Shown: positions 9,961 to 42,235 of the stretch, in pieces
Layout of the letters: each line of letters starts with the position of its first letter
How positions within the stretch are numbered: the first letter of the stretch is position 1
DNA from: a virus
Taxonomy: Duplodnaviria > Caudoviricetes
Reading direction: 5' to 3' (one strand)
Length of the DNA: 64,000 nt
IMG/VR virus record: IMGVR_UViG_2933279956_000001
Span: 1-64,000 of that record
Translations under genes and position numbers: made by a program
The notes under the pieces: model-generated
Told to the model about the DNA's origin: nothing
What the model saw: only the letters and a program-made list of their open reading frames with translations
The model's database searches: none

Positions 9961-10434
9961 CTACGGTCGAAAGGTCCGTTCGTCCTGTGCCACGAGGAAG
10001 CGGTCGATCTCCATCCGCAGGGCCGCGACCCGCACCGGGTCGATCCGGGTGCTCTTCCGGATGGCGGCCAGCGGATCAACGGCACGCCGGCCGCGCGCCG
10101 CCGCCGCGGTGGTGACGAGTTCGCCGTAGCGTTCCTTGCACGCGGCGATCTGCCCGAGCAGCCGCTCGCGCGCCTGCCCGGCTTCGCCTTCGAGCAGGAC
10201 CTGGCCGTCCGCGTCACCGGCGGCCGCCATCCACGACAGCAGGGGCGCGTACAGCAGCGCGTCGATCGCCTCGTCGAGCGTCTGCAGGCCGTGTTCAGCC
10301 ATCCGGTGCTCGAACGCCTCCTTCGGGATGCTGGCCGCGAACGGTGTCGCGCCCCCGCTCTCGGGCTCGTAGTGGACGAGCCACGTCGTCGGCCCTTCCT
10401 CCACCCGGTCGATGCGCCAACTGCGAACGCTCAT
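9961..10434 (-). CDS. Tail-tip partner protein A
   Basis: IPKEAFEHRMAEHG..LDEAIDALL..DPLAAIRKSTRIDPVRV; ATG overlaps the stop of tail-tip gene A. Confidence 0.7.
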   Translation of the reverse strand: MSVRSWRIDRVEEGPTTWLVHYEPESGGATPFAASIPKEAFEHRMAEHGLQTLDEAIDALLYAPLLSWMAAAGDADGQVLLEGEAGQARERLLGQIAACKERYGELVTTAAAARGRRAVDPLAAIRKSTRIDPVRVAALRMEIDRFLVAQDERTFRP

Positions 10435-13193
10435 GCCACTCCGTGTTGTCTCCAGGCCCACACGTGCAGCGCGACGCTGAAGTTGGGCGGGCTGCCGATG
10501 CCGGACTCGTTAGAGCGGAGCGTGAACCCGGTCGAGACCGGGTTACGGATGTTGAAGCTCAGCCGCTCCGGGATCGGGTTGTCCGGCGTGATGACGACGC
10601 GGGGCGTGGACTGCAACGTGACGTTGAAGTTCACGAAGTACGTCGACGCGGCCGACTGGCCGATCTCGGGCAGCGACCGCATGAACATGACCAGCCCGGC
10701 CTGCGCCTCGTAGGTGAAGGTGCCGCGGAAGGAGGTGTAGCCGGTCGCCGAGCCGCCGCCGTTGTTGAACAGCCACCGGTTCAGGCGTCCGGCGATGTCG
10801 TTGTAGCCGACCTCCAGCCGGTCCGGCTGCGCGAACATGTAGCCGCCGCCGGCGAGGCCGTCGGAGGTCTGCACCATGTGCATGCGCCACTCGTCGCCCT
10901 TCTGGATCACCTCCGAGCGGCGGGTGCCGTCCGGGCTGGTGCCGGAGTAGAGGCGGATGGCGGCGTTGCTGTCGGTCCAGATGCGGGCGTGGTTCGTGCC
11001 GGAGCCCGGCATGAACCGGATCTCGGGGTCGGCCGCGCCAGCCGGGTTGATGATGATGCGGCGGCCGGTGAGCCCGGTGGCGAGCTGGCCGACGATGGAG
11101 ACCGCGCCGGACGCGGACGACACCAGCACCGTCTGCACGCCGGACCCGTTGTACGCCTCCAGCCCGGCCGTACTGAGTTCGACGCGGGCGCCCGTCGGCG
11201 TCCCTGCGACGAGGCGGGACACCAGCGTGAGGATCGCCTCCAGCTTGTCGGCCGTGATCGCGTTCGCCGAGATGTGGCTGGCTTGGACGGCTCCGGCGGA
11301 GATCTTCGCCGCGGTGACGGCGTTCGCGACGAGCGCGCCGGTGGTGATGGAGTTGTTCGCCGCGTCTCCGGCGACGAGCGGCACCGTCGCGATGGTGGCG
11401 GACGCGGAGCGCGGTGAGGCGTTGCCGCTGCGGTCGACGGCGGTGAAGGAGAAGTCGCGGTCGACGCCGTACGGCAGGCCGGGGACAACGATGGAGCCTG
11501 CCGCCAGCAGGTAGCCGATCTCCTGCCAGCCGGGCGCGAGCGGGTCCTGCATCCACACGAGGACCCGGTCGAGGTCGGACGGCATCGGGGAGGCTCCCAC
11601 GCCGAGGCCGTCCCAGGTGACGTGCACGACCCCGAGCCGGGTGGCCAGCGCGGGCGCGGTCGGCGTGGGCGGCGCCGTGGTGTCGTCCGGCACCGTCACC
11701 GCCACCGAGGAGGAGAACGGGCCGCGTGCGCCGAGGTTGATGGCGCGCACCTTGAACTGGTACTGCTCGCCGATCACCAGCGGGGAGAACGTCGCGTTGA
11801 CGTCCCCGGCCTGCGTGAGCGCGACGAGGAACCACGGCTGCCCGACCTCGTTGACGCGCATGAACAGCTCGTAGCCGCCCACGGTGAGCGCGACGCCGTT
11901 CACGTCCGCCGTCACCGCGCCCCACGATGCCGTCACCTGACCGCGCGGGAACCCGGCCTCGTCGATGTAGGCGACCGGGTCCACGATCAGCCCGGCCGGA
12001 GCCGCTGGCGTGCGCGGTGCCGGGGCCTCCGGTGCTGGCCTCGCTCCGGACCCTCCGTCAGCGGTGCTGCCTCCGACGATGCCCGCGGTACGGCGGGCCA
12101 GCCGCAGGTCGCGTTCGAGGAGGCGGTCGTTGAGGACGAGGTTGCCGCCGACGACGCGGTGCTCGTCGAGCGTGACCGTCATCTGCCTGATCCTCAGGGA
12201 CTCCATGGCCCCGGCCTCGCCGGGGGCGAAGATGCGGTCTCCGGGCCGGTAGTCCCTCCACGGGAACCACCTGCTGTCCGCAGTGACCAAGATCCCTCGG
12301 GTGCGTTGGACACGTTCCCGATCACCGCGCGCTAGGACGGACGCTGCGAGGAGTTGAGCGGTCCCGGAGTCAGAGACACCCCCCTGACCCACGTACGTCT
12401 CCCAGGGCCCCCACGGACCGTGATTGCTGGTGGAGACGGTGATCTGGAACCCGCCCTCACCCCGAACGAGGACCCTGGACGCCCGGTCCTCCAGCGTCCC
12501 GGTCTCAGGGGCCTCCACCACGTCGCGGCCGTACCGAAGGTCCACCGGAGCTGGGCCCGTCGCGAGGTCGCGCCCGAGCTGGGTGTCGGCGTTGAACAGC
12601 TGGACCGTCCGGCCGGTCGTGCGGAAGTCGAGCACGGCCTGCTCGGCGAGGTTGATGAGCACCTTGAGAGCGTCGATGCCGAGCTCGTAGTAGATCGTGA
12701 GGATCTTGGCCCACGCCTGCCCTGCGGAGTCGTGCGTCGGCGTGAAGTCCCACGTGATGCCCGGCGCGACTCCCCGCGCTTGGGCCTCCTGGAGGAACGT
12801 CTGCATGATCGCGCCCGGCGTCGCCGACAGGAACGCTCGCTTGCCGTCCACGAGCGGCGCCGGGCCCGGGTACAGGACGACCTTGGACAGCTGCCAGATC
12901 CAGCCCGGCATCTCGTACGCCGACACCGCGGCGCGGTCAACGCCGTCGGCACGGCGCTTGATCCGCAGGAACCGGCCGTCCGGCGGCTCCGTCCAGACGA
13001 GTCCGTCGCTGCTCCACTCGATCGCGATCTCGCACGGCTGCGCCAGCTGGGCCGCGCCGGTCGAGCGGCCGCTGTAGGACAGCTTCAGCGCGGGCACGTC
13101 ATCGAGCGGCTGCCCGATCTCCGCCTTGAGCGGGTTCGGCAGAACACCCAGCCTCACCCCGTTCGGGGCGTACGCAACGAGACGGAGGTCCAC
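10431..13193 (-). CDS. Minor tail/tail-tip protein A, 920 aa
   Basis: LRLVAYAPNG start, FN3-like YQFKVRAIN, SANAITADKL repeats; GGAGGT RBS. Confidence 0.85.
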   Translation of the reverse strand: MDLRLVAYAPNGVRLGVLPNPLKAEIGQPLDDVPALKLSYSGRSTGAAQLAQPCEIAIEWSSDGLVWTEPPDGRFLRIKRRADGVDRAAVSAYEMPGWIWQLSKVVLYPGPAPLVDGKRAFLSATPGAIMQTFLQEAQARGVAPGITWDFTPTHDSAGQAWAKILTIYYELGIDALKVLINLAEQAVLDFRTTGRTVQLFNADTQLGRDLATGPAPVDLRYGRDVVEAPETGTLEDRASRVLVRGEGGFQITVSTSNHGPWGPWETYVGQGGVSDSGTAQLLAASVLARGDRERVQRTRGILVTADSRWFPWRDYRPGDRIFAPGEAGAMESLRIRQMTVTLDEHRVVGGNLVLNDRLLERDLRLARRTAGIVGGSTADGGSGARPAPEAPAPRTPAAPAGLIVDPVAYIDEAGFPRGQVTASWGAVTADVNGVALTVGGYELFMRVNEVGQPWFLVALTQAGDVNATFSPLVIGEQYQFKVRAINLGARGPFSSSVAVTVPDDTTAPPTPTAPALATRLGVVHVTWDGLGVGASPMPSDLDRVLVWMQDPLAPGWQEIGYLLAAGSIVVPGLPYGVDRDFSFTAVDRSGNASPRSASATIATVPLVAGDAANNSITTGALVANAVTAAKISAGAVQASHISANAITADKLEAILTLVSRLVAGTPTGARVELSTAGLEAYNGSGVQTVLVSSASGAVSIVGQLATGLTGRRIIINPAGAADPEIRFMPGSGTNHARIWTDSNAAIRLYSGTSPDGTRRSEVIQKGDEWRMHMVQTSDGLAGGGYMFAQPDRLEVGYNDIAGRLNRWLFNNGGGSATGYTSFRGTFTYEAQAGLVMFMRSLPEIGQSAASTYFVNFNVTLQSTPRVVITPDNPIPERLSFNIRNPVSTGFTLRSNESGIGSPPNFSVALHVWAWRQHGVA

Positions 13194-13780: not shown

Positions 13781-14109
13781 CTCGGCCGCGTCGGACAGGG
13801 CGAGGTCGGCGTTGATCGTTGATTCCCTTCATCGGTGGGAGAGTCGGCGCGGATCCCGCCGTCAGCGGGTGAGGCGGAACAGGCACATGGGCCTGTCTGA
13901 CGGTCTGGGCGGGCAATCCGGAGAGCAAGTTCAAGATTTTTCCGTGACACAAACCAGCATCGAAAATGTGTCAGAGAGAGGCAGTGACCAGCCAATGTCT
14001 TTAAACAGACGTTGAACGCATGGAGCCCTCGGGCGGGTTTCCCTCTCACGCGACGAACGCGATGCGAGTATTCTTTGTCTCACCATCTAGCGAAAGGCGG
14101 CGATCGCGC

Positions 14110-14217
14110 ATGCGCGCGTTAGACCCGAACAACGGGCGGGGGGAGCAGCGGCTCCTGGCCGTCAAGATCCTGGTGATCTTCACCGAGTGGATCATCCGGC
14201 ATTGGCCGTTCACCTGA
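14110..14217 (+). CDS. 35-aa hydrophobic peptide (MRALDPNNGRGEQRLLAVKILVIFTEWIIRHWPFT)
   Basis: GAAAGG upstream; followed by hairpin 14255-14297. Confidence 0.45.
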   Translation: MRALDPNNGRGEQRLLAVKILVIFTEWIIRHWPFT

Positions 14218-14386
14218 CCACATAAGGCCAGGTGAGGACCACAACCTCAACATCCGAGACCCCCCGTTCACGCTTGCAGGCAGGGCGGGGGTTCTCGCTG
14301 TCTCGTCTCCAGCTTAGCAACTTCGCCTGCTTTGCGAAATTAACATCTCGAACGATATCCGCAAAGCTAGTGGCAGAGATAAATAT

Positions 14387-14538
14387 CTAGCGGTAGTCAA
14401 ACCGGAAAGTAGTAACTGCGGCTAGCAATTCGCGGAAGCTTGATATCAGTAGTGGAAATCTAGATTTTGACTAGCGTTGTGATATCCCTGGAGAACTTGC
14501 TACGGCTAGTAAGACGTGGAAGTACTAACTACCGCTAG
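14387..14538. repeat. Degenerate ~150-bp palindrome, AT- and CTAG-rich
   Basis: Nested inverted pairs centred on AAATCTAGATTT (14456-14467). Confidence 0.7.
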
Positions 14539-14571
14539 TTGTTGCATCCGGCTCGACTGCATCGCCGCAGG

Positions 14572-15450
14572 TCACAGGTAGGCACGGCGTCCGCGGATCT
14601 CCAGCTTCGACGCCGCGGTGGTCGACGTCGCCGAGCTGGTGACCAGCACCACGCGGGAGAACGGGTCGCCGACGCCGATCGTCGGGGTCAGGTGCAGCCA
14701 CCGGAAAGCCGACCCGGGGCCGGTCGCCTGGATGTCGCCGGTCACGTCGACCACGTCCGGGCCGGGCGTCAGGTCCCACGTGTCGATGGTCGCCTTCGAC
14801 GCGCGCATGGCCGCGCAGTCGATGAGGAGCCGCTCGCCGGCGAGGAGGCCGGACGGGCGGCGGATGGTGGCGCCGGTGGCCACGTCGACCACGGTGGGGT
14901 TCACGGCCGGGCCGGTGATGCGCAGGAGCGCGTCGGTGATGGGGCCGGTCGCTCCGGCGAAGGTGGTGACGGGCTGGCTCGCGCCGTTCGCTGATCCCTC
15001 CCACGTGGACGGGATCGGGTCGCGCCAGAAGACGCCAGGGATCTTCACCACGGCGGTGAAGCGCGCCCTGGCCGGGCCGGGGTCGAGCTCGATCTCGGAG
15101 GTGGTCTCCACGGTGACGTCGGCGACGCGGACGATCGACCCGGTCGTGTAGGTGAGCGTCATGAGCCGGTGGCGGACGCCGAACACGGCGGCGAGCGCTT
15201 CCAGGTTGGTCTCCAGCTGTTCGACGCCGCCGTTGGAGCCGTCCGGGCGGATGCCGTACGCGCCGACGACGATGGGGAGCGTGGTGGCCTCCAGGTCGAG
15301 GCCGTGCACGGGGATCTCGCCGGAGCGGCCGGGCACCTTGAGCGAGACGGCGCGGACGCCCGGGAGCGGCCGTCGCTTGGTGCCGACCTTGGCTCGCCAG
15401 CAGCCTGCTGGGTGGTCAAGCGGTACTCCGTCGAGCGTGTACGTCGGCAT
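14572..15450 (-). CDS. Distal tail (Dit-like) protein
   Basis: First same-strand gene after the tape-measure genes; VPGRSGEI, IPGVFWRD, ITGPAVNP, ends RRAYL. Confidence 0.75.
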   Translation of the reverse strand: MPTYTLDGVPLDHPAGCWRAKVGTKRRPLPGVRAVSLKVPGRSGEIPVHGLDLEATTLPIVVGAYGIRPDGSNGGVEQLETNLEALAAVFGVRHRLMTLTYTTGSIVRVADVTVETTSEIELDPGPARARFTAVVKIPGVFWRDPIPSTWEGSANGASQPVTTFAGATGPITDALLRITGPAVNPTVVDVATGATIRRPSGLLAGERLLIDCAAMRASKATIDTWDLTPGPDVVDVTGDIQATGPGSAFRWLHLTPTIGVGDPFSRVVLVTSSATSTTAASKLEIRGRRAYL

Positions 15451-15709
15451 CGTCCCCTCCCCTCTCGGTCCGATGAGCTTCCTCGGGAGTACTTCGGGTT
15501 CCGAGTACCGCCGATGGACGGGCCTGGATACCGCGCCACGCGACCGAGGCTGGCGGTCGCGTACCGCCGGTGTTTACACGCCACTTCAACCAGCAGGCAG
15601 ACGACGGGACAAGCCGCTGCTCGTTAGCGTTTGACCACTTCAAGCCCCCGCTTTCGGAAGCCAAGAGGGCTCAACGGAGGGCTCAGGAGCAACACACAGG
15701 AGGTCGCAC

Positions 15710-16009
15710 ATGCGTACGACGTGGAAGGTAGCCGCTGCTGCTGTCACCGTCGCGGCCGGGATCGGCCTGGCGGGTCTGCCTGCCGCGGCAAGCACCTCGA
15801 TGGGGTACTTGCCGAGCTGCGCGAAGGTCAAGCACACGACGGGCATCACGTCCCAGACGGTCAAGGTCACCAACAACTGCTCCTACGGCGTCGCGTGGTA
15901 CGTCGACAAGGAAGGGCCGAACAGCGTCTGCTTCTACACCGGTCCGGGCCGGTGGCAGAGCCACAAGTGGCGCAAGATCGATGCCTACCACGGCACGTTC
16001 ACCTGCTAA
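15710..16009 (+). CDS. Secreted 4-Cys protein, tendamistat (alpha-amylase inhibitor)-like spacing
   Basis: AGGAGG RBS, Sec signal peptide, LPSC..NNC..VCFYTGPG..C-terminal C. Confidence 0.65.
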   Translation: MRTTWKVAAAAVTVAAGIGLAGLPAAASTSMGYLPSCAKVKHTTGITSQTVKVTNNCSYGVAWYVDKEGPNSVCFYTGPGRWQSHKWRKIDAYHGTFTC

Positions 16010-16029
16010 GACGTGCCCGTGGCCGACGG

Positions 16030-18333
16030 TTACAGGACACCCAGCATCCCGGCATAGGCCAGCCCGCGGTTGACGGTGTCGGAGGTGGGCTCGGCGACCG
16101 GGTTGATCGCGGTGACGTGCACGGTCACCGCTCCCCCGGTACGGCTCCCGCCGCCGGTGACCGTTCGGCCGGTGGTGGCCAGGTTCGCCGACAGCTCGGG
16201 CGTGAACGCACGGCCGAGCTGTCCGGCGATCGACCGGGCCGCCGTCAGTACGGCGCGGGTCTGGCCAAGCATGCCGTCGCGCATGCCCAGCATCGTGTTG
16301 GCGCCGATCGCGGCGAACAGCGTGGACGGGGAGCGGATGCCGAGCGCCTGCCTCACCCAGTCCGGCATGATCGAGGAGAAGAAGGTGTAGAGGGTGTCGC
16401 GGAACCAGCCGGCCGCTGACGCGATCCCGTTCCACAGCCCTTGCAGCAGCTGGACGCCGAGCTGGCCGACGATGAGCAGGAACTCGCCGATGCCGCGGGC
16501 CGCAACCGCGATGGCGCCGGGGAGATCGCCGCGCAGGAGGCGGGCCGCGCCGTCAAGGAGCTGGATCAGCGGCGGCAGCAGCGACGTCGTCAGCTGAACC
16601 AGCGGCGGCAGAACGGGCAGGATTACCGGGAGCAGGTCGGCGAAGCTCTTGACCATGGACAGCAGGTGCGGGGCCGCGTCCCGCAGCCCAACCAGGAGGG
16701 CCTGGCCGATCTGCCCGGCCACCTGACCGACGAGCACGATCACCGGCCCCAAGATCGGGACCAGCCCAGTGACCAGGTGCGCGATCAGCAGCGCCAGCTG
16801 CGGAAGCAGCGGAGCCAGCGCAGGAACCAACTGGTTGACCACGGTCACACCGAGGCTGGCCAGCAGCGGGATCACCGGCTGCAGCGCGAGCAGCGCCTGA
16901 CCGAAGGAGACGACCAGCAGCTGCAGCGACGGCAGCGCCGCCTGCACCCCGGCAGCGATCGCGCCTGCGATCAGCGCGGCAACCTGGCCGAGCACCGGCA
17001 GCAGCGGGGCCGCCGCAACGAAGATCGCCGACACGGCTCCGCCGAGCAGATGCAGCGCGGGCGCGGCCACCTCGACCGCGCGCCGTACCCCCTCGAAGAT
17101 GGCGGAGATTCCCGGGTAGAGCGCAGCCAGCGCGGGCACCAGGCCTTGCACAGCGGTCGTCAAGATCGGCCCGACCTGGACGGCCAGCGCGCCGATGAGC
17201 GGGGCCAGCACCCCGACGCCCTCCGCGACAGCCACCAGGACGGGCGCGAGCGCGGACGCCGCGTCCCCCATCGCGACGAACATCGCGGTGAGCGTCCGCT
17301 GGCCGCCTGCCGAGTTCACCCACGCGTTGATCCGGTCCAGGATCAGGCCGAGGACGCCGAGCGCGTCGCCGCCAGCCGCGCGCATCGCAGCGAACACCCC
17401 AGACGCGATCCCCCACAGGTCGACGGCAGCCGTCGCGAGCTGGCGCAGCACGGTGACGGCGCCCTGCATCCAGGCGAGCGCGCGCCCCGACTCGGCGGCC
17501 GCGGTGAGGAAGTCACCGAACCGCGCCGCCGCCGCGGCGATCTGCGGGACGAGTCCGGCGCTGAACTGCGCGCCGACCGCAGCGATGCGGGCCAGCCCGG
17601 CCAGCAGCGGATCGATCGCCACCGCCGCGGCGTCGATGGCCGCGCGCAGCGACCCGAAGACGACCGCGAGGGTGGAGACGGCGACCTGGGAGCGGCCGAA
17701 CGCGGCCACCCGGGAGACGGAACGACCGATCGCGTCCGCGACCCCGGCCATGCCGGAGGTGACCGGCCCGGCCAGCACCGCGGCCAGCATGCTGAGCTGC
17801 CCGGCCAGGGGTGCGAACAGCGCCTCCTGCACGGTCACCCGAATGCCGTCCAGGAGCGGCTTCAGGACGCGCAGTTCCCGCGCCACCGCCTGCGCGGCCG
17901 GGGACAGCCGGGCGACCGCTTCCTCGAACTTGGCGGCGTCGTCACCGAGGGCCGCGGAGAACGCGTCGCTGACGCCGTACAGGGCGACCGCGAGCGTGCC
18001 CGCCCCGACAGCGGCGAGCGCCAGCAGGCCCGGCATGGCCGCGACCGCGCCCAGCGCGGGTGCGAGCGCCGCCCCGAGCGACAGCAGCGCGTTCCCTACG
18101 CCGGCCGCCGCAGCGCCGAGGACCGCCACCCGGGCGGCGGCCGCGACGATGCCGACGCCGAACTGAAGCAGCTGTCCGGCCGTCGCGCGGGCGCTGGCTC
18201 CGATCGAGCGGGCGTCCCGGTCGAAGCCGATCGCGGCCAGACGCGACGACGTGGTCGCCTGCGTGAGCGCGCGGATGAACTGCCGGTCCCGCAGGTCGAT
18301 GGAGATGAACAGCTCTCCGACGTTGATCGCCAC
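16030..18333 (-). CDS. Tape measure protein 2 (767 aa)
   Basis: MAINVGEL start, Ala/Leu/Gly helical repeats with periodic Pro, LGIRSPSTLF motif. Confidence 0.85.
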   Translation of the reverse strand: MAINVGELFISIDLRDRQFIRALTQATTSSRLAAIGFDRDARSIGASARATAGQLLQFGVGIVAAAARVAVLGAAAAGVGNALLSLGAALAPALGAVAAMPGLLALAAVGAGTLAVALYGVSDAFSAALGDDAAKFEEAVARLSPAAQAVARELRVLKPLLDGIRVTVQEALFAPLAGQLSMLAAVLAGPVTSGMAGVADAIGRSVSRVAAFGRSQVAVSTLAVVFGSLRAAIDAAAVAIDPLLAGLARIAAVGAQFSAGLVPQIAAAAARFGDFLTAAAESGRALAWMQGAVTVLRQLATAAVDLWGIASGVFAAMRAAGGDALGVLGLILDRINAWVNSAGGQRTLTAMFVAMGDAASALAPVLVAVAEGVGVLAPLIGALAVQVGPILTTAVQGLVPALAALYPGISAIFEGVRRAVEVAAPALHLLGGAVSAIFVAAAPLLPVLGQVAALIAGAIAAGVQAALPSLQLLVVSFGQALLALQPVIPLLASLGVTVVNQLVPALAPLLPQLALLIAHLVTGLVPILGPVIVLVGQVAGQIGQALLVGLRDAAPHLLSMVKSFADLLPVILPVLPPLVQLTTSLLPPLIQLLDGAARLLRGDLPGAIAVAARGIGEFLLIVGQLGVQLLQGLWNGIASAAGWFRDTLYTFFSSIMPDWVRQALGIRSPSTLFAAIGANTMLGMRDGMLGQTRAVLTAARSIAGQLGRAFTPELSANLATTGRTVTGGGSRTGGAVTVHVTAINPVAEPTSDTVNRGLAYAGMLGVL

Positions 18334-18381
18334 CGGCCCTCCCCTCCGAGGGTTGAACCGGCGTGTCGACGCCCTGGCGAG

Positions 18382-20433
18382 CTAGACCAGGCCGAGAACG
18401 GATGCGAACTGCAGGCCCTTGTTCGTCGCGGTGCTCGTGGACTCGGCGACCGGGTAGTAGTTCGTCTGGTGGATCACCGTCTGCGGGCCCGTCCGCGGTG
18501 CGCTCGCCTGCGGGACGGCGACCTTGGCGCCGAACGTGGCACCACCCATCGACCCCGCGAGCCCTCCAGCGGTTCCGGCGAGCATCTGCGCGGCCTGCTG
18601 GGCGGGGCTGTAGCCGCTCATCGCCGAATGCATGGAGTGGCGCAGCGTGCCGGTGAGCCGCTCGGCAACCGACTTCACGGACCCTTCCTGCGACAGCAGG
18701 CCCTGCACCCAGCCGCGGACGGTGTCGACGCCGAGGGCGGCCATGAGCGTGGACGGGGACCGGATGCCGAGCAGGTCCTTGATCCACTTGATGAAGCCGG
18801 TGAACAGGCCCCCGACGGTGGAAGTGAAGGAGTTCCACGCGTTGACGAAGCCGTTCTTGATGCCGTTGACCAGGTCCGTGCCGAGGGACCAGAGCTTCTT
18901 GAACGCGCCGGTGATCGTGTTGCCGAAGGCGACGACACCCGACTTGATCGTGTCGAACGCGCCCTTGAAGTCGCCCGTCAGGAGCTTGGCCAGGGCGGTG
19001 ACGACGCTGATGACCAGCGGCAGGATGGCCGTGCTGAGCTGAACCAGGGGCGGCAGAAACGGCGTCACCGCGCCCACGACCTTGGCGAAGATCGTCGCCA
19101 GGAGCGTCAGGATGGGCGACAAGGCCTTGATCAGTTGCAGGATCGGCGGCAGCAATGCCTGCCCCAGCTGCCCAAAAACCGGAAGAATGGGCGTCAAAGC
19201 ACCCAAAACGATGGACACGGCTTGGACGAGTGCGCCGCCCAGCGCGGCCGCGATCTGCCCGACGATCGGCAGCAGCGGAGCAAGCGCCGGAAGAAGCGCG
19301 CTGGCCAGCGTGCCGACCAGTTGGGCGATCGGCGGCAGCAGCGGAAGCAGCGCGACGATCAACTGCCCGAACGCGCCAGCGATCTGCCCGACCACCGGCG
19401 TGAGCTGCGACAGCACCGGCTGCAGCGCCGTCGTGATCGTCTGCGCGACCTGCACCAGCACCGGCAGAAAGGCCGACGCCAGCGTGCCCGCGAGCTGCAG
19501 AATCGGCGGCAGAAGCGGAATGATCGCAGCGACAATCCGCGCGAAGCTCATGATCAGCTGGCCGAGCACCGGCGAGATCCGCAGCAACGCCGGACCCAGC
19601 TGAGCCGCCAGCGTCTGGGCGATCAGCGTGAGCCCGGCGAACAGCGGCCCGGCCAGCGATCCCGCCACCTGGACCAGCACCCCGAGCAGCGGCCCGAGCG
19701 CTTGAAGAACGCCACCGATCCCGGTCACCAGCGTGGCCAGCAGCCCGCTGTTGGCACCCAGCGCGGCCGACACCGGCGCGAGAAATCCGGCCAGCTGCCC
19801 ACCGAACTGGCCGAGGCTGCCAGCGAGCGCGCCCAGCAGCGGCGTCACCGCCCCGACGAGCCCCGACACCGCAGGCAGAATCGGCTGCAGAAACGCACTC
19901 AACCCTGTCGTGAACTGCGCAAACAGGGGCACCATCTGCGTGAACATGCCTTGCAGCGCCGGAGCCAGCTGCGAGGAGAAGATGCTCTTCAACGAGCCGG
20001 CCGCCGCGATCAGTGGCCCCTGGAAAACCGACGCGGCGTTCGCCAGGTCGGCCTTCACCGACGACGACAAGTCCGCGAACGCGGCCTTCACCGCAGGCGC
20101 GGTCGCGGCGGCCTTGATGCCGATGATGCCGATGCCGACGACAGCCGCCGCGGCCGCCGCCGCGATCATGCCTCCGGCCGCGACACCGGCCGCGCCGACG
20201 CCCGCCAGCAGTGCGCCGCTCTTCGCCCCGGCGGCCGCGAGCGCCATTCCGGCGCGTGCCCCGGCCGAGACGACCGTGGCCGCCATCCGGGTCGCGGCCA
20301 TCCCCGCGCCGATCATGGCCGCGTGGATGCCGGTGGCGTGCACCCGGATTCCGGCGACGGCCCGCCCGAACGGGCCGGACATCTGGTCGCGGAAGTCGAG
20401 CGTCGCGTATAGCTCGCCCACGTTGATGCCCAC
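18382..20433 (-). CDS. Tape measure protein 1 (683 aa)
   Basis: MGINVGEL start, LLPPI-type repeats, LGIRSPSTLM; follows the tail chaperones. Confidence 0.9.
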   Translation of the reverse strand: MGINVGELYATLDFRDQMSGPFGRAVAGIRVHATGIHAAMIGAGMAATRMAATVVSAGARAGMALAAAGAKSGALLAGVGAAGVAAGGMIAAAAAAAVVGIGIIGIKAAATAPAVKAAFADLSSSVKADLANAASVFQGPLIAAAGSLKSIFSSQLAPALQGMFTQMVPLFAQFTTGLSAFLQPILPAVSGLVGAVTPLLGALAGSLGQFGGQLAGFLAPVSAALGANSGLLATLVTGIGGVLQALGPLLGVLVQVAGSLAGPLFAGLTLIAQTLAAQLGPALLRISPVLGQLIMSFARIVAAIIPLLPPILQLAGTLASAFLPVLVQVAQTITTALQPVLSQLTPVVGQIAGAFGQLIVALLPLLPPIAQLVGTLASALLPALAPLLPIVGQIAAALGGALVQAVSIVLGALTPILPVFGQLGQALLPPILQLIKALSPILTLLATIFAKVVGAVTPFLPPLVQLSTAILPLVISVVTALAKLLTGDFKGAFDTIKSGVVAFGNTITGAFKKLWSLGTDLVNGIKNGFVNAWNSFTSTVGGLFTGFIKWIKDLLGIRSPSTLMAALGVDTVRGWVQGLLSQEGSVKSVAERLTGTLRHSMHSAMSGYSPAQQAAQMLAGTAGGLAGSMGGATFGAKVAVPQASAPRTGPQTVIHQTNYYPVAESTSTATNKGLQFASVLGLV

Positions 20434-20452
20434 CCCGGCCCCCTTCAGCTGG

Positions 20453-20752
20453 TCAGTCCGGTGGAGGAGGGGAGAGGGCGCGGGCCAGGCGCGTGTCAGC
20501 GTCGAGCAGGCCGAGGATGCGGGTACGAAGCCACCGCCAGGAGCGGCCCTCCAGCGAGCGCGGCGATTCCAGGTCGATGCCGTACACCTGGTGCAGGTCG
20601 CATTCGACGAGCTGCCAGCGGGCTAGGACTTCTTCCCAGCCGACCGCTTCGCCGCCGCCTTCGTGGCCCGGGGCCGGCTCGTACCACTCCCAGAGGCCGG
20701 TCGCTTCGTCGTAGTTGCCGCCGCCCCGGGGTCCGGGGCTGCCGCTTCCCCC
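20453..20752 (-). CDS. Tail assembly chaperone frameshift extension (gpGT-like)
   Basis: -1 frame entered at GGGGGAA (20752-20746); WQLVECDLHQVYGIDL..SWRWLRTRILGLL. Confidence 0.75.
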   Translation of the reverse strand, partial: GGSGSPGPRGGGNYDEATGLWEWYEPAPGHEGGGEAVGWEEVLARWQLVECDLHQVYGIDLESPRSLEGRSWRWLRTRILGLLDADTRLARALSPPPPD

Positions 20753-21099
20753 GCCTGGCCACCCGACTCCCAGTAGCGCATGGCCGTGTCGACGCCCATG
20801 GTGATCCACAAGAACGCGGTCACCCCGGCCAGCTTGATCTTCAACCAGTCGACGCCGTTGGCGCGAAGCTGGCCGTAGACGGGGCCGAGAACCCGCTGGT
20901 ACATGTCGAGCTCCTGGCCGTCGTCCAGCATGGCCGCGTCCACCTGGCCGCCGTTGGCCGCGACCACACCTGCCGCCATCAGCCGCTCGCACAGCACGCC
21001 GGTTTCGGCGTCCGGCGCCGGGACGACGTAGCGCTTGCCGCCGATCGGCAACGCCAGCGTGCTGTCGAAGAAGTCGTCAAGATCCTTGAACTCGGCCAC
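20623..21099 (-). CDS. Tail assembly chaperone (gpG-like)
   Basis: Lies between major tail and tape measure genes; contains slippery G GGG GAA. Confidence 0.8.
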   Translation of the reverse strand: MAEFKDLDDFFDSTLALPIGGKRYVVPAPDAETGVLCERLMAAGVVAANGGQVDAAMLDDGQELDMYQRVLGPVYGQLRANGVDWLKIKLAGVTAFLWITMGVDTAMRYWESGGQAGEAAAPDPGAAATTTKRPASGSGTSRPRATKAAAKRSAGKKS

Positions 21100-21102
21100 G
21101 GG

Positions 21103-21570
21103 CTACGCCGTCGGGTTCGTGATCTCGACCGGCTTGCCCTGGCCGATCACTTCGGCGTCGAACGGCTCCAAGTCGGTGGTCTTGCCGCCGCCGCCCTTGT
21201 AGTCGACGGTGCCCCACCCTTCGTAGGCGTCGGGGGCGCCGTCCTTGCGGTACCACCGCACGTGGAGGTTGGCTTCCATGCCGACGATGAGTCCGGCCTT
21301 GCGCAGGAGCTCCTGTCCGGCGTCGGGGATGAACGGGCCGGGCTGGTTCTCACGCTTGCGGTTGCCCTTGATCTTGAGGGTCCACGCGCGCTGGGTGGTC
21401 GCCTCGGATGCCCAGCCGTCTCCGTCGAAGTCGGAGTCGTCCTCGGTCTTGCTCTTGATCTCGGGCTCGAACGTGGTCAGGCCGCGGACTCGGGTCCAGG
21501 TCGCAGCCGCGCTGGGCGTGGCGTCGACCTCGAAGACCCAGTCCTTGGCGAGCAGACTGCGCTGGCTCAC
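21103..21570 (-). CDS. Major tail (tube) protein
   Basis: WTRVRGLTTFEP, DDSDFDGDGW, PDAGQELLR, VRWY; synteny. Confidence 0.85.
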   Translation of the reverse strand: MSQRSLLAKDWVFEVDATPSAAATWTRVRGLTTFEPEIKSKTEDDSDFDGDGWASEATTQRAWTLKIKGNRKRENQPGPFIPDAGQELLRKAGLIVGMEANLHVRWYRKDGAPDAYEGWGTVDYKGGGGKTTDLEPFDAEVIGQGKPVEITNPTA

Positions 21571-21640
21571 GGGGTGCCTCCTCGGGCATGCGGGAAGTTC
21601 TCGGCAGCGGTTTAGCTGCCAAGATGGGGAAGTCAGGGAG

Positions 21641-22093
21641 TTAGGGGCGATGGAGGCTGGGCCGGGCGACCATCAGGTCGTAGCTGTCGGCGCGTTCCCA
21701 GCGGCCGGAGGCGTCACGGTCGAGCGGGGCCACGATGCGGCGTTGCGCCAGCAGCACGAACACGCCGGTGGCGAGCTGACAGTTGGACAGGCCCTGCAGG
21801 ACGTCGTAGACGCCATCGGCCAGGTCGTCGACGACGCGCGGGTCCTGGCCACCGCGCATGCGGGCCTGGACCTGCACCATCGCGTCAGCGTCGGTGACGC
21901 TGTCGGTCCACGTTCCGGCCCCGTACACGGCGAAACAGATCGCGTTGTCCGGGCTGGGCGGCAGGCCGCCGATCGTGAGCGCCACCTGGTCGCCGGCGTA
22001 GACGCCGTCCGGGTTCCACACGCCGACCCCGTGCTGGGCGTGCAGCTCGGCCAGGCCGGACAGCAGGTCACGCGTCCAGGACCGGGCGCTCAT
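21641..22093 (-). CDS. Tail terminator / minor capsid-type protein
   Basis: VQVQARMRG, DDLADGVYDVLQGL; directly upstream of the tube gene. Confidence 0.75.
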   Translation of the reverse strand: MSARSWTRDLLSGLAELHAQHGVGVWNPDGVYAGDQVALTIGGLPPSPDNAICFAVYGAGTWTDSVTDADAMVQVQARMRGGQDPRVVDDLADGVYDVLQGLSNCQLATGVFVLLAQRRIVAPLDRDASGRWERADSYDLMVARPSLHRP

Positions 22094-24338: not shown

Positions 24339-25253
24339 TTAGGGAACGTCCACGTCCTTGACGAGGACCGCCCGGTTGGGGTCCAGCGTCTTGGTGCCGT
24401 ACAACGTGTCGATGCTGACGACGTCCTGCTTCAGGTCGATGTCGTAGTCCATGACCACGCGCAGGCTGAAGCCCTTGTAGTTGGCGACGACCGCGTTCGC
24501 TGCGCCCTGCGGCAACACCAGCGGCCTCGTGACCAGGCAAAACGCCGTCCTATGGAAGGCGACGCCGACCTCGCTGGTGGAGTTGCCGGTGGTCTGCGGC
24601 GGCACCTTCACGTTCTGCGTGGAGAACGCGTCGAACCCGAACACGCGCCGACCCAGCGAGGCCTCGCGCAGGCCATCAGTGTCGCCGCGGACGTCGAGCT
24701 GGTGAAACAGCGGGTCGGACAGCCAGTTGGCCTTCGTCTGCGGGCCGATGACGACGCTGCGCGCGGACGGGGCGACGTTGCGCTCGTTCAGCACGCGGTC
24801 GGCGTCGATGCAGGTCTTCGGGGTGTTCCACGCGTGCAGGTTCGGCGGGCCGCCGTTGCCGACCTCCTGCGTGATGTCGTCCCGCAGGACCAGCAGGTCC
24901 CGGTCGATCTTCTGCGAGATCGCTTCCATCGCCGGGTTGAGCAGCTGCGTCGCGAAATCTTCAATTCTCAACGTCATTTCTTCGGCGGTGACCGCGAAGC
25001 TGACGTCGGCGAAGTGGTTGAGCTTGACAGGGATCGCGGTCTCGGTCGCGTTCTGGATCTGGATGCCCTGCGACCGGTCGTACTCGTAGGCGTCGAACGT
25101 GGCAGGCTTGCGCACGTTGACGGTGTCGCCCACCTTGCCGGCGAAGTCCTCGTCGAGGTCCCTGTGGACCAGCTGGGCCATGACGCAGGTCTCGTACAGG
25201 GTTGCCAGGGCGGCCCGTGCGATCACGGATGGCGTGAGAAAGGTGTTGGCCAT
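24339..25253 (-). CDS. Major capsid protein (P22 coat-like family)
   Basis: MANTFLTP, KVGDTVNVRKP, VAFHRTAF, SIDTLYG. Confidence 0.9.
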   Translation of the reverse strand: MANTFLTPSVIARAALATLYETCVMAQLVHRDLDEDFAGKVGDTVNVRKPATFDAYEYDRSQGIQIQNATETAIPVKLNHFADVSFAVTAEEMTLRIEDFATQLLNPAMEAISQKIDRDLLVLRDDITQEVGNGGPPNLHAWNTPKTCIDADRVLNERNVAPSARSVVIGPQTKANWLSDPLFHQLDVRGDTDGLREASLGRRVFGFDAFSTQNVKVPPQTTGNSTSEVGVAFHRTAFCLVTRPLVLPQGAANAVVANYKGFSLRVVMDYDIDLKQDVVSIDTLYGTKTLDPNRAVLVKDVDVP

Positions 25254-26220: not shown

Positions 26221-27354
26221 CTATCGGGCGGGACGGTCGGCGTAGGCGACCGGCCTTGGTCCGGGTGCGGAGGCCCGGTGCTCCTTGAGCCGGGCCCGGT
26301 ACTCGGAGGCCTTCGCCGCCGCCTTCTTCCGGGTGGCTTCGTCACCGAGCGCTTTCGCTGCGGACCGGCGTCGCTCCCACGAGCGGGCCTGACGTTGCAG
26401 CTGTCGCTCCTGCTGACGCGCCTTGTACGCGGCCTCCCGCTCGGCTTTCGTTCCGGCCGCCCGGGGCGGCTGGGTGAGGCCGGGCAGGTACGCCGACAGC
26501 GAGTGCGTGCACCGCGGATGCTGGAGTCCGGCCGCCCGCGCCTGCGCGATCGTCGCGGCCACGTTCACCTCGACGGGCTCCCGCGTCACGGGATTGGCTT
26601 CGGTGCGGGCGCCGGGCTGGCCGTCCTGGGTGAGGATCGTGCCTTCCCAGGGGGCGCACACCGGGCACGTTCCGGCCGCCGAGCGGGAGACGATGACGAG
26701 GTCCATGCCGTTGGCCCGCAGGGATGCGAGGTGGCCGTCGGTGGCGGCGCGGGCCTGCGCCGTCCGCATCGCCATCTCCACGTACGACGACAGCGACCAA
26801 GCGCGGCCGCGTTCGTCGGTGAACCCGGTGACGCCGTGCGCGGCGAAGATGTCCATGGCGCGGGCCGCCGCCTTGCGCGGGTCCTCGGCACCGGCGAGCA
26901 CGCGCGCAGACATTTCAGCGATCACCTTGCGGTAGAGGTCCTCGACGAGGCGCAGCGCGCTGTCGTGAACGGAGTCGATGCCGCGGACCGTTTGCGCGGC
27001 CAGCTCGGCAACGCCCTGCCCAGGATTGATCGCCTTCTTGGCGCCGACCTGGCGGAGCTCGGCCAGCGCCCGGGTGACGCCGCGCCGCCACGCTGCGGTG
27101 ACGCCACGCTGCACCGCGCGCTCCATCGCCTTCTCCAGGCGGGCGAGGATGCGTTCGGTGTCCTTACGCAGCTGAGCGAGTTCGGCGGCGCGGACAATCG
27201 CCCATTCCGGCTCGTCCAGCTGACGGGAGACGCGGTCGGCGATCATGTCGAGGAGCGCCTGCTCGGCGTCGGCGTACATGGCCGACAGGAGCCGGGCCTG
27301 GGCGACGGCGTCGAGGACGTCGGCCGCGTCCTGCGGCGTCGCGACCGCCATCAC
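26221..27354 (-). CDS. Minor capsid protein (Phage_min_cap2 / MuF-like)
   Basis: GRAWSLSSYVEMAMRT, CPVCAPWEG, GLQHPRCTH. Confidence 0.85.
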   Translation of the reverse strand: MMAVATPQDAADVLDAVAQARLLSAMYADAEQALLDMIADRVSRQLDEPEWAIVRAAELAQLRKDTERILARLEKAMERAVQRGVTAAWRRGVTRALAELRQVGAKKAINPGQGVAELAAQTVRGIDSVHDSALRLVEDLYRKVIAEMSARVLAGAEDPRKAAARAMDIFAAHGVTGFTDERGRAWSLSSYVEMAMRTAQARAATDGHLASLRANGMDLVIVSRSAAGTCPVCAPWEGTILTQDGQPGARTEANPVTREPVEVNVAATIAQARAAGLQHPRCTHSLSAYLPGLTQPPRAAGTKAEREAAYKARQQERQLQRQARSWERRRSAAKALGDEATRKKAAAKASEYRARLKEHRASAPGPRPVAYADRPAR

Positions 27355-28910
27355 GCGTCGAGGTCGTCGGGGACGTACTTGTCGACGAGCTCGTCCGGCG
27401 ACTGCACGTTGAGGCCGTGCTCGTCCTTGATGCGCTCGACCTCGGCCCGGATCTGGGTGTCATCCCAGTCGGGGTGCAGCCAGCGCACGCGCGTGTCCGC
27501 GCTCGCTGCCTGCGCCCGGTTGACCATGTCGAGGGTGCGTGAGAGCGCTTCGGGGTCGGGCTGGACACCGTCCGGCCACTCCACCGTCGCCCTCTCCGAC
27601 ACGACCTTGGTGCCGTAGATGGCGTTGTCGACCGCGAGCAGGCATTCGGCCAGCCAGGCGAGACAGGGTGTCCAGTAGCCGATCTTGCGGCCCCGCGTCA
27701 CGAAGCTTTTGCGCTCGCGGGAATGGATCTCCGTCGCCGTCGCTGCCGCCCCTTCACCGGCTTCGCCGAAGCTTTGCACCGAGTAGCCCGCACCTCGAAG
27801 AATTTGCGCCAGCAACGACTTGGCGGTCTGCTGGTGCTCCTCCACCCGGATCGCGAACTGCGACAGGGTGATCATCTGGTTGGAGGAGCCATTCGGCGGC
27901 GGCAGCATCCCCAGCGCCGAGTAGATCTCCCGGTCCGGATCCCACATCGAGCCGCGGCCGCGGCCGGTGTTCTGGAGGAACACCTCGGGGATGATGATGC
28001 GCGCCTTGCCCAGCCGCAGGTCCCGCATCCAGCTAGTCCAGGTTTCGTCGAGGGCGTCCATCAGCGACTCGACGCCGGCGTAGTCGGAGCGGCCCAACGA
28101 GGTGCCGCGCAGGGTTCGGTGCGGGCGCATGTTCGGGACGTAGAAGACGAGCAAGCCCTTGTAGCCGCTGTCGAAGCCGCCGTCGGCGTCGACCATCTCG
28201 GCGAACACCGCGGTGTCCGGGTGCTCGGTCAGCGGGATCTGGATGCCGAGCCGGTCGTCGTCGCCCTCGAACAGGCCGTGGTAGACGCGGCCGGGTTCGT
28301 GCCGTTCAAGGTGACGCCACACGATCTTGTCGTCGGCGCGCACCACCCGCCAGAACGTGACGGCGCGCAGCTGGCCGATGCTGAACTCGGGGACGGCGCA
28401 GTCGGGCGGGAGCGCGTCCACGATGGGGTGGTCGTACAGGTCGGTGTTCCAGCCGACCCGCACGTAGACGCCTCCGTAGGCGGCCGCGAGCTCGGCCGCT
28501 TCCAGCCACACGCCATACGCGCCGGACTCGGCAAGGACCTGCTCCAGGCGGGCCTGACCGGTGGAGCCGCTGACCCGCAGCGTCGGCGGCTCGGAGAACA
28601 GCAGGTCGCCGGAGGTGGCGGCCACGTCGGAGGCGACCGGGACGTGCAACTTCGTGGAGCGGGACTGGCCGGCCGGGATCGGCGTCGACCAGAAGAAGCG
28701 GGCCACCCGGTTGATGAAGCCGCCGCCGAAGGTCAGGGGCCGGTCGTAGCCCTTGAGGTCGAGGCCCACGCTGGGGACGTGGCCGCCGCCGTACACCTCC
28801 GACAGCCGGTCGGGGTCGCCGCTGTACCAGGCGCCCCACGTCTTGTACAGCTTCGTCTCCGCGCGCTGCGACGGAGGCGGCCACTCCTGGTCTCGATCAG
28901 GCAGCGGCAT
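27351..28910 (-). CDS. Portal protein
   Basis: LHVPVASD, LERHEPG, LGRSDY, ALDETWTSWMRDLRLGK, TATEI. Confidence 0.9.
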   Translation of the reverse strand: MPLPDRDQEWPPPSQRAETKLYKTWGAWYSGDPDRLSEVYGGGHVPSVGLDLKGYDRPLTFGGGFINRVARFFWSTPIPAGQSRSTKLHVPVASDVAATSGDLLFSEPPTLRVSGSTGQARLEQVLAESGAYGVWLEAAELAAAYGGVYVRVGWNTDLYDHPIVDALPPDCAVPEFSIGQLRAVTFWRVVRADDKIVWRHLERHEPGRVYHGLFEGDDDRLGIQIPLTEHPDTAVFAEMVDADGGFDSGYKGLLVFYVPNMRPHRTLRGTSLGRSDYAGVESLMDALDETWTSWMRDLRLGKARIIIPEVFLQNTGRGRGSMWDPDREIYSALGMLPPPNGSSNQMITLSQFAIRVEEHQQTAKSLLAQILRGAGYSVQSFGEAGEGAAATATEIHSRERKSFVTRGRKIGYWTPCLAWLAECLLAVDNAIYGTKVVSERATVEWPDGVQPDPEALSRTLDMVNRAQAASADTRVRWLHPDWDDTQIRAEVERIKDEHGLNVQSPDELVDKYVPDDLDA

Positions 28911-28984: not shown

Positions 28985-29938
28985 TCAGGTGATAGGCACG
29001 AGCCCGGACGGCAGCACGGGCACCTCGTCGCCGCGCGAGACGCGGATCCACGCCTGGTAGGTGCCGTCCGGCAGCGGGGAACTGCTGCCGGGGCCGACGA
29101 GCACGAGGGCCTTCATGCCCTTCTTCGTCGGCTCGCCCCACGTGGCAGGCCGCCAGTCCGACTCGATCGGCTTCACGCCCGGAACAGTGAAGGCGGCCTC
29201 GACGGGTTCGCTGCCGTTGGCGTAGTCGACGGCGAACTCCAGGTGCTCCCGGCTGAGCGAGTTCACTGGGTCCACGGAACCTCTCCTCCCTGCGAAGCGG
29301 ACGGCCCACCTGCGCTGTGGCAGGCCAACCTGCAGTGGCGGACGGCGACGCAGCATGGCGCGGGCCGTGCCGGTCTCAACGGCGCGGTGCAGGACGCCGG
29401 TCTTCGTCGCGGTGAACGCCAGCGCGGTCCCGCTCTCGGTAGCCGCTGCTGTGGGCGCCGTACGGGCGTAGGTGAGCGGCGCGGCCAGACCTGCTGCGGA
29501 AGCGCGGCCGAGCTGGCCGATCTTGACGGCGGTCACCGGCAGCGCCTGGTCGTGCTCGACCAGGCGGTTCACCTGCGCTGTCGAGGTGATCGGGAATGCC
29601 GTCGAGGTTTCGACGGCGACGCCGAGCACGGCGGTCTTCACCGCGGTCATCGGCAGGGCCGTCTGCGTGGACTGCGCTCGGTCGGCCGGTTGCGTCCGCG
29701 CGGCGGCCATGGGCAGCACGGTCCCGGTGTCGGTCGCGGCGGCCAGCGGCCGGGTGATGACCGGGGTCATGGGCAGCGCGGTACCGGTCTCCGCTGCCGC
29801 GGTGAGCGCGGCGGCGTGAGCGGCCGTCAGGGGCAGCGCCGTTGACGTCTCGGCGGCGGGGCCGACCTTGGGCGGTTCAGCGGCGGCCGGGCGGACGATC
29901 AGCGCCCGGTTCGGGAATCCTCGTCCAGCGCGAGCCAA
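28985..29938 (-). CDS. Ala/Thr-repeat protein fused in frame to a small Ig-like ORF (second RBS/GTG at ~29275)
   Basis: Repeated AxETxTALPxT units; C-terminal LVGPG..LPDGTYQAWIRV..EVPV. Confidence 0.6.
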   Translation of the reverse strand: MARAGRGFPNRALIVRPAAAEPPKVGPAAETSTALPLTAAHAAALTAAAETGTALPMTPVITRPLAAATDTGTVLPMAAARTQPADRAQSTQTALPMTAVKTAVLGVAVETSTAFPITSTAQVNRLVEHDQALPVTAVKIGQLGRASAAGLAAPLTYARTAPTAAATESGTALAFTATKTGVLHRAVETGTARAMLRRRPPLQVGLPQRRWAVRFAGRRGSVDPVNSLSREHLEFAVDYANGSEPVEAAFTVPGVKPIESDWRPATWGEPTKKGMKALVLVGPGSSSPLPDGTYQAWIRVSRGDEVPVLPSGLVPIT

Positions 29939-29959
29939 CGCCGCCCCCTCCCGTGGTCG

Positions 29960-31309: not shown

Positions 31310-31327
31310 GACCCCCTCCCCCCGAGG

Positions 31328-31819
31328 TCAGATGCGTTCGACCCACATGCAGGCCGACACGCTGACGGCGGCCGGGAACTTGGCGCGCAGCACGAACCCG
31401 GTCGACGGGGCGCAGTCCGGGGAGTCGCCGAGCGGCAGGTCGTAGACAAGCAGGCCGCCGTTCGGCGTGATCGGGTACGGGTCGATGATCGACAGCACGG
31501 TCGGCTCGGCCGTCCAGGTGTGGGCGGCGGTGAAGCCGGGCGGGATCGGCCTGCCGTACACCTGCTGCGGCGTCACCGCGGTGGAGGCGGTGCCGGGCGC
31601 GTTCGCCGCGAACGTGGCCTGGCACAGCTCGATGTCACCCGGTACGGCTGAGGCGGACACGCCGTACAGGCCGATGCGGATCTTCTTGATCTCCAGCCCG
31701 AACTCGGCGGGCGCGCGGAACCCCAGGACGCTCTTGGCCACATTCGCGGCGAGCGCGACCGGCGTGGTGACGTGGGTGGTGGAGTTGATGGTCGCGACGG
31801 TGTAGCCGGTCTTCGACAT
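31328..31819 (-). CDS. Putative virion structural protein
   Basis: 163 aa, beta-rich, in the terminase-portal block. Confidence 0.6.
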   Translation of the reverse strand: MSKTGYTVATINSTTHVTTPVALAANVAKSVLGFRAPAEFGLEIKKIRIGLYGVSASAVPGDIELCQATFAANAPGTASTAVTPQQVYGRPIPPGFTAAHTWTAEPTVLSIIDPYPITPNGGLLVYDLPLGDSPDCAPSTGFVLRAKFPAAVSVSACMWVERI

Positions 31820-41861: not shown

Positions 41862-42235
41862 GCGCCCAGCCTGTCGAGGAACACCTCGCAGTAGATCAGC
41901 TCGATGGCGCGCCAGATGACGTCGTCGTCGTAGCCGGCGCGGGCCCACTCCTGCAGGAGGCCGTAGGCGAGTTCGCCGTCGCCGTTGAAGTAGCAGCCGC
42001 CGGTCACGTATGCGCACGCCGGGTCGTGATGGTCGGCGTCGTCGCGCGAGTGAGGCGCGTGGATGCCGAGGATCGTCGGCTGCCAGCCGCCGGGAAAGGA
42101 GTCCAGGCCGGGGTCGGGGTCCATGCGGTGCAAGGAGAGCTGGACGGCGCCGAGGTCTCCCTGGGCGATCCAGCTGCGTCCGCCGGGGATCGGGTTGTCG
42201 GTGTGGGTGTGGGTGATGCGGTGCAGGTCGGTCAT
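41858..42235 (-). CDS. Hypothetical protein coupled to the recombinase
   Basis: LGIHAP..CAYVTGGCYFNG; GTGA overlap. Confidence 0.65.
   Translation of the reverse strand: MTDLHRITHTHTDNPIPGGRSWIAQGDLGAVQLSLHRMDPDPGLDSFPGGWQPTILGIHAPHSRDDADHHDPACAYVTGGCYFNGDGELAYGLLQEWARAGYDDDVIWRAIELIYCEVFLDRLGA

Follow-up and report, generated by a model that had tools for sequence, protein, structure and literature searches.

We analysed a window of 64,000 nt, the first 64 kb of the 103.8-kb IMG/VR virus record IMGVR_UViG_2933279956_000001 (Duplodnaviria; Caudoviricetes), which is 97% complete according to CheckV; the G+C content of the window is ~69%. An earlier note on this DNA, made from the letters alone, had placed two tandem tape-measure protein (TMP) genes at 16030-20433, and this interval is the exact span of two adjacent open reading frames (ORFs) on the minus strand, encoding 683 aa (T1, upstream) and 767 aa (T2, downstream). 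The sequence features listed in the note were recovered. Both products share the start M(A/G)INVGEL, which reads M-G-INVGEL in T1 and M-A-INVGEL in T2, the initiator being GTG and not ATG in both genes, and the first 17 residues agree at 10 positions. LGIRSPSTL is present in both, and the C-terminal ends, PVAESTSTATNKGLQFASVLGLV in T1 and PVAEPTSDTVNRGLAYAGMLGVL in T2, are identical at 13 of 23 residues. Each gene has its own start and ribosome-binding site, GGAGGGGAGG lying six bases before the T2 GTG in the 48-nt gap and GAAGGGGG before the T1 GTG. At 0.15 nm per residue, the two lengths correspond to ~102 and ~115 nm, as had been calculated. The suggested co-transcription of T1 and T2 fits the finding of no terminator-like site between them, in a scan that is weak for an actinomycete. 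Note that this promoter and terminator scan, run on 14000-22000 with a consensus unsuited to actinomycetes, found nothing.

We next compared both products with TMP families. The note had made its claim depend on both ORFs matching TMP profiles, and both did. Specifically, T1 matched 22 PHROG families, 16 of which are annotated as TMP (best 8.6e-26, phrog_58), and T2 matched 13 families, 12 of them annotated as TMP (best 8e-61, phrog_6090). For the structure search, profiles were built from orthologs, one for T1-type proteins (A2) and one for proteins with the N-terminal domain of T2, hereafter type B (A3). The A3 profile matched gp16 of PDB entry 8zdo (2.8e-28), gp57 of Staphylococcus phage 80alpha in 6v8i (8.5e-24), FtbJ in 9j1k and CD1366 in 8v3w, and the A2 profile matched 6v8i (9.3e-17) and 9j1k (2.3e-13). 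Each of these entries contains three copies of the solved TMP, in agreement with three lumen chains per tail. In 80alpha gp57 (6v8i, 9mu2; 1154 aa), the type-B match covers chain residues 928-1111 and the T1-type match residues 811-1095, so that the likeness is confined to its C-terminal third. Phage 80alpha has a single TMP gene. In gp16 (8zdo, 8zdq; a 1699-aa chain), residues 307-573 were matched by the type-B N-terminal domain of T2 and of single TMPs (profile 125-390), and no match was made by T1 profiles. Judged from these sequence comparisons, T1 and T2 are both complete tape-measure-family genes.

T1 and T2 are also homologous to each other. BLASTP gave 29% identity over 486 columns (E 3e-34), and profile-profile alignment by hhalign joined T1 220-683 with T2 350-767 (probability 100, E 6.8e-72). 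Given this overlap, and given that each ORF has an N-terminal start motif, an LGIxSPS module and a C-terminal end motif, they are not halves of a split gene, as the note had maintained. Its description of different cores holds for the N-terminal third (T1 ~18-220, type A; T2 ~18-350, type B), where the two proteins were not alignable, and fails for the hydrophobic middle and the C-terminal module, which are homologous. T1, T2 and the single TMPs of relatives have these end motifs in common, in all cases at the chain ends. The tail after the SPS motif is of constant length in T2 (102-105 aa), as in single TMPs, and spans 99-156 aa in T1. At the DNA level, similarity between T1 and T2 within the window was limited to stretches of 51 nt (84%) and 50 nt (78%), indicating that the copy is old; recent duplication or gene conversion in the window was rejected on the same grounds. 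The N-terminal and middle parts of T1 had no match among 50,697 phage records (E 1e-5). In a large protein collection, the N-terminal third and middle of T1 had at least 6 hits among the matches listed, and all 5 with a source name came from Streptosporangiaceae, the names given being 'phage tail protein', 'hypothetical protein' and 'Tape measure protein'. In a protein atlas, T1 1-230 matched only 'phage tail protein' clusters, which we treat as leads only.

To see how widely the pair occurs, related loci (labelled L005, L006 and so on) were collected by IMG/VR scans, which gave 11 loci on 10 contigs, and by a scan of one genome per GTDB species, which gave 46 loci, nearly all in Streptosporangiaceae (Nonomuraea, Streptosporangium, Spongiactinospora, Planomonospora and others). 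Intact tandem pairs were called by motif-based ORF calling between the chaperone gene and the gene for the Dit-like distal tail protein. Such a pair was found in 4 of the 10 IMG/VR contigs (L005, L007, L008, L009/L010) and in 14 of the 46 genome loci (L016-L021, L023-L029, L041); the remaining genome loci comprise 24 with one full-length TMP and 8 that are partial, frameshifted (L031) or remote. As the sequences of L028 and L008 are identical, 18 distinct paired elements were obtained with the window included. The pair is not a local accident, and recurs in prophage-like elements of Nonomuraea-type soil actinomycetes. A GGAGG-type site lies 5-10 nt upstream of all 18 T1 and all 18 T2 genes, and the T1-T2 spacers measure 33-137 nt. 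In the window, the two genes are in the same frame, with TAG and 16 sense codons between them. The same frame is shared by 9 of the 18 pairs, 3 of which have a further stop in the spacer; thus, an in-frame layout without a further stop (6/18) is not conserved. Fusion by stop-codon read-through was rejected on these counts, all 18 T2 genes having their own Shine-Dalgarno sequence and start.

Segment-wise BLAST divided the pairs into two kinds. A+B pairs, in which the N-terminal thirds are of types A and B as in the window, are carried by the window, L005, L019, L020, L041, L008, L025, L026 and L023. A+A' pairs are carried by L007, L010, L016-L018, L021, L024, L027 and L029; their T2 has acquired a T1-like N-terminal third (38-43% identical) and middle (46-50%), and has kept a T2-type C-terminal module (49-53%). 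Thus, the type-B N-terminal domain is dispensable, and what is retained is two genes with position-specific C-terminal modules. The later arrival of a T1-like core in T2 of one sub-lineage, with both genes kept, suggests that these position-specific modules are what selection preserves.

Nei-Gojobori ratios of nonsynonymous to synonymous substitution (dN/dS) did not reach 1 for either gene in any of the 34 informative, non-duplicate pairs of orthologs, ranging over 0.15-0.53 for T1 and 0.10-0.49 for T2, and over 0.15-0.37 and 0.10-0.43, respectively, within subgroups. Values of the window against L005, L020 and L023 were 0.39-0.53 at dS of 0.63-0.85, where saturation is likely. Both T1 and T2 are under purifying selection. 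In addition, lengths were invariant within subgroups (663/732, 653/675 and 638/734-738 aa for T1/T2).

A few relatives depart from this pattern. Long T1-type genes of 858-1148 aa (L005, 4872-8318; L019, L020, L041; L022, 6995-9571) have a C-terminal addition of ~240 aa with a second LKIKSPS-type module, and the T1 proteins of L005, L019 and L041 have a further N-terminal insertion of ~210-220 aa. In L022, the 858-aa T1-type protein with the extra C-terminal module is the sole TMP. In L006 (6885-10838), both genes have decayed together, T1 having an internal deletion, an unrelated ORF being inserted, and T2 being frameshifted with ~200 residues gone. L031 (6995-8842) contains a frameshifted A'-type T2, and no capsid, tube or Dit genes were detected nearby.

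The history of the pair was then examined with two trees. A marker tree of concatenated major capsid, major tail and Dit proteins comprised 43 rows, after removal of the duplicates L028, L032, L033 and L037, of L009 and of loci lacking full markers. It split in two at 100/100. A single type-B TMP was found in every row of the 21-row side, and the 22-row side contains the 18 paired elements, L006, L022 and two Planomonospora elements that have a single 972-aa type-B TMP. In a tree of C-terminal modules (66 rows, built by a quick method), the 18 T2 modules stood together with 25 single-TMP modules, and the 18 T1 modules lay across a branch of 96%; likewise, the 23 singles of the other clade occupied one side of a 96% branch and all modules of the 22-row clade the opposite side. 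The T1 subclades mirror the T2 subclades. Rooted as the marker tree, the module tree has the shape expected from one duplication in the ancestor of the 22-row clade, followed by co-inheritance. As for the choice between duplication and capture from another phage, which the note had left to phylogeny, the tree, which covers the C-terminal modules, is compatible with a single duplication. Derivation of the second C-terminal module of L022 and of L005-type T1 proteins from T2, which would have spoken for a need of T1 for the T2 module, was unsupported, as the 4 second modules formed a long branch of their own on the T1 side.

By these trees and alignments, the single TMP of sister elements has its ortholog in T2, and T1 is an additional copy that is confined to the clade and arose once. 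The single TMPs of sister elements were collinear with T2 over the full length, with 37-41% identity. These proteins (746-791 aa; Nonomuraea, Sphaerisporangium, Thermocatellispora, Sphaerimonospora) resemble T2 in the N-terminal motif, the type-B N-terminal domain, the LGIxSPS module and the end motif, and their genes have the same neighbours, the chaperone gene upstream and the Dit gene downstream. The sister elements differ in having one TMP gene, being without the upstream paralog T1.

The coordinates of the genes discussed here are given in Table 1. The minus strand of the window carries a siphovirus-type late module, in which the order tube, chaperone with its -1 frame extension, T1, T2 and Dit puts both T1 and T2 at the position expected of a TMP gene. 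The module has one tube gene, and a single chaperone gene for the two TMPs. The -1 frame of the chaperone gene stays open from 21076 to 20453, and a candidate slip site, GGGGGAA at 20752, is non-canonical. The -1 extension had no family match, and a frameshift, suggested by the gene arrangement, is plausible. The Dit-like gene is the neighbour expected downstream of a TMP; among the 46 relatives with a Dit match, the gene at the same position has a product that is 57-71% identical in 44 and 45% identical in L059 and L060. The tyrosine integrase and RecT identify the element as temperate.

Table 1. Genes and features of the window that are discussed in the text.
Feature	Position	Strand	Basis
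Second large tail-tip protein, 927 aa	6546-9329	-	paralog of 10431-13193
First large tail-tip protein, 920 aa	10431-13193	-	phrog_31834 tail protein, E 4.7e-35
Dit-like distal tail protein, 292 aa	14572-15450	-	phrog_33 Dit, E 6.8e-06
T2, downstream tape-measure gene, 767 aa, GTG start	16030-18333	-	TMP profiles; ortholog of sister elements' single TMP
Spacer T1-T2, 48 nt, with GGAGGGGAGG	18334-18381	-	
T1, upstream tape-measure paralog, 683 aa, GTG start	18382-20433	-	TMP profiles and homology to T2
Overlapping -1 frame extending the chaperone (gpT-like part), putative	20453-20992	-	frame analysis
Tail assembly chaperone (lambda gpG-like), 158 aa	20623-21099	-	phrog_3860 tail assembly chaperone, E 2.4e-31
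Major tail (tube) protein, 155 aa	21103-21570	-	phrog_3884 major tail protein, E 1.3e-47
Connector/head-tail proteins, n=4	within the late module	-	
Major capsid protein	24339-25253	-	
Minor head protein	26221-27354	-	
Portal	27351-28910	-	
Large terminase	33203-34495	-	
Tyrosine integrase	40896-42017		
RecT	55320-56843		

The two large tail-tip proteins are themselves paralogs, 44% identical over 853 aa, and both have an LRLVAYxPNG start at the N-terminus, an fn3-like region and a fibre-like C-terminal part. Single-TMP relatives have comparable tail-tip pairs, often with a first copy of just ~380 aa. A link between the tail-tip duplication and the TMP pair was rejected, since the single-TMP loci L013, L015, L030, L035, L042, L052 and L053 also carry two tail-tip genes; thus, the tail-tip duplication is older than, and independent of, the TMP pair.

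Several further observations concern the surroundings of these genes. In the window, T2 and the Dit-like gene are 579 bp apart (15451-16029; 65% G+C), while in most relatives they adjoin or overlap; gaps of 166-490 bp are present at this place in L005, L020 and L026. The only ORF in the window's gap with a coding-like G+C content at third codon positions (GC3; 0.88) is 15710-16009 on the opposite strand, which encodes 99 aa and has no Pfam family match. Inside the T2 coding sequence, ARAGORN called a 91-nt 'tRNA-Arg (gcg)' at 17521-17611 (minus strand), which is most likely a false positive of G+C-rich coding DNA; Rfam gave no tRNA there at gathering score. Between portal and terminase, three ORFs with coding-like GC3 (28985-31819, minus strand; 317, 449 and 163 aa) set the terminase apart from the portal, and they had no Pfam or NCBIfam match and almost no PHROG match. 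At the start of the record, the ORF 142-651 (plus strand) has a Ro60-type vWA domain (PF25045, E 2e-34) and seems to be the C-terminal portion of a Ro60/Rsr-like gene that is truncated by the end of the record; neither a Y-RNA nor any other Rfam family was found at gathering score in the whole window. Beyond the window, at ~73.4-73.7 kb, the record has a gene with a ParB_N domain. Many carrier contigs of the related elements (L016-L061) measure 88-127 kb, near the 103.8 kb of the record, and others lie within chromosomes of 9-12.8 Mb, which suggests that some copies are extrachromosomal plasmid-prophages. Passages of a published study describe the Nonomuraea plasmid-phage PhiNon1 (59 kb) and the Streptomyces plasmid-phage pZL12 (PMC5431353).

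Beyond the sister elements, the TMPs of the cultured Streptomyces phages phiSAJS1, Mischief19, Xkcd426 and TurkishDelight are 36-42% identical to T2 122-446, and the same TMP gene of Mischief19 was matched by the C-terminal module of T1 (409-602) at 25%. In these phages, the match falls on one annotated TMP gene, at one place per record, unlike the pair of the window. Evolution of TMP length by internal tandem duplication has been described, in the passages available, as a change of short repeat units within one ORF (PMC3271669). That mode and the present one both make new ruler material by duplication; here, however, the duplication involved an entire gene, including a start, stop and ribosome-binding site of its own, and both copies were kept. 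Full-text literature searches, with subscription-only papers and supplements outside their scope, did not turn up any account of two complete TMP paralogs in tandem, and a precedent may exist. The passages that they returned treat chaperone pairs, alternative TMP alleles between phages, a draft-sequence frameshift or within-gene repeat units.

We tentatively propose that T1 and T2 are both functional TMPs of one siphovirus-type tail, preferably as a mixed trimer, a reading that draws on comparative sequence evidence and to which we give slightly less than an even chance. T1 and T2 would be translated independently from the same late operon. T2 would be the canonical ruler, given its orthology to the only TMP of the sister elements; T1 is an old paralog that arose once in the clade ancestor and has been kept by selection since. 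Given that both keep the 17-residue N-terminal and the ~25-residue C-terminal end motif, beside one chaperone, one tube and one Dit gene, a common chaperone and hub would load both into one tail lumen, where they would most probably lie in parallel as a mixed trimer, and both proteins would be present in the virion. Labour would be divided between them, T1 being specialised for forming a membrane channel when the lumen proteins are ejected. This role is suggested by its unusually long uncharged hydrophobic core, as residues ~151-450 include 3 D/E/K/R in 300 aa; the uncharged stretch of T2 is shorter (451-550). A more demanding version, in which the tail ruler of the clade is obligately made of two gene products, either as a mixed T1/T2 trimer breaking the three-fold symmetry of lumen and tip or as two trimers in series, is possible, and we would rather expect it to fail than to hold.

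Several results weigh against the proposal of two functional TMPs in one tail. Neither Pfam-A (E up to 1) nor NCBIfam (E up to 0.01) gave a TMP-family match for T1 or T2, the sole matches, Baculo_PEP_C and BCLP, being below threshold and apparent composition artefacts. The TMP models of Pfam and NCBIfam span only some TMP lineages, so a missing match does not exclude membership. AlphaFold2 predicted almost all helix for both proteins (T1 37-622, T2 17-709), with a low mean predicted local distance difference test (pLDDT) of 40.5 and 39.6, respectively. The length difference between T1 and T2, 84 residues in the window and -388 to +100 in relatives, is awkward for chains held in register, and the lengths from the N-terminus to the GDF motif co-varied weakly between T1 and T2 (rank correlation 0.6, not significant, 4 A+B subgroups). 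T1-type proteins may be able to act alone, as judged from L022. In addition, the results obtained here are compatible with separate homotrimers as well as with a mixed trimer.

It is unlikely, in our judgement, that T1 and T2 are alternative rulers, whose homotrimers nucleate separate tails and yield two virion classes with tails of ~100 and ~115 nm, as the note had implied. Such a scheme would suit the complete end motifs of both proteins, since each could dock in the hub, and the unrelated N-terminal thirds of A+B pairs, which disfavour a mixed coiled coil in that part; the T1-type sole TMP of L022 also speaks for it. However, if each copy were self-sufficient, loss of either should be tolerated and frequent, but both genes remain intact and under purifying selection in 18 of the 22 elements of the clade, and a clear loss of T2 was found within the clade in L022 only. 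Nor is the size relation conserved, as T1 measures 928-1148 aa against 760-761 aa for T2 in four elements, and we know of no advantage that tails differing by 12 nm would bring, which we also count against alternative rulers. The same rarity of loss disfavours a dispensable T1, whether it is pictured as a redundant copy drifting to loss or as a TMP-like non-virion protein. T1 is intact in all 18 paired elements, with its low dN/dS and invariant length within subgroups; the short remnants of DNA similarity to T2 mark it as an old copy that survived long divergence; and in L006, where decay is seen, both genes decay together. Although its tail after the SPS motif is variable where that of T2 is constant, and the sole TMP of relatives corresponds to T2 alone, we regard dispensability as very unlikely.

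A serial two-part ruler would place a T1 trimer on the N-terminus of a T2 trimer, giving ~1450 residues and ~215 nm, as though a tandem duplication of the whole gene had been kept with an internal stop. The extreme C-terminal end motif retained by T1 is hard to fit into this picture, because it otherwise always occurs at the hub-docked chain end and would have no partner in mid-tail, and we found no precedent for a non-covalent serial ruler; a read-through fusion, with 6 of 18 pairs in frame without a further stop, is not a conserved alternative to non-covalent stacking. On the other hand, the T1-then-T2 gene order matches the N-to-C order of such a ruler, an LGIxSPS-type module is tolerated inside the chain in L005, L020, L041 and L022, where more TMP sequence follows it, and tandem duplication is among the modes of TMP growth described in the passages cited above (PMC3271669). 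On balance, we think that the serial arrangement is improbable, to much the same degree as dispensability of T1.

The tape measure is the textbook single-protein molecular ruler, in which one gene gives one trimer and one tail length. Two complete, co-inherited paralogs under purifying selection need an added rule, be it a mixed trimer, two tail classes or a serial ruler, and each of these predicts a distinct tail-length distribution and virion composition. For paired elements, the prediction of tail length from gene length is ambiguous, and annotation pipelines that expect one TMP may label the second copy as 'hypothetical' or call it 'phage tail protein', names that some sources already use. 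If the ruler of these elements is indeed made of two products, this would be the first instance of two tape-measure paralogs dividing tail length and DNA-channel formation between them.

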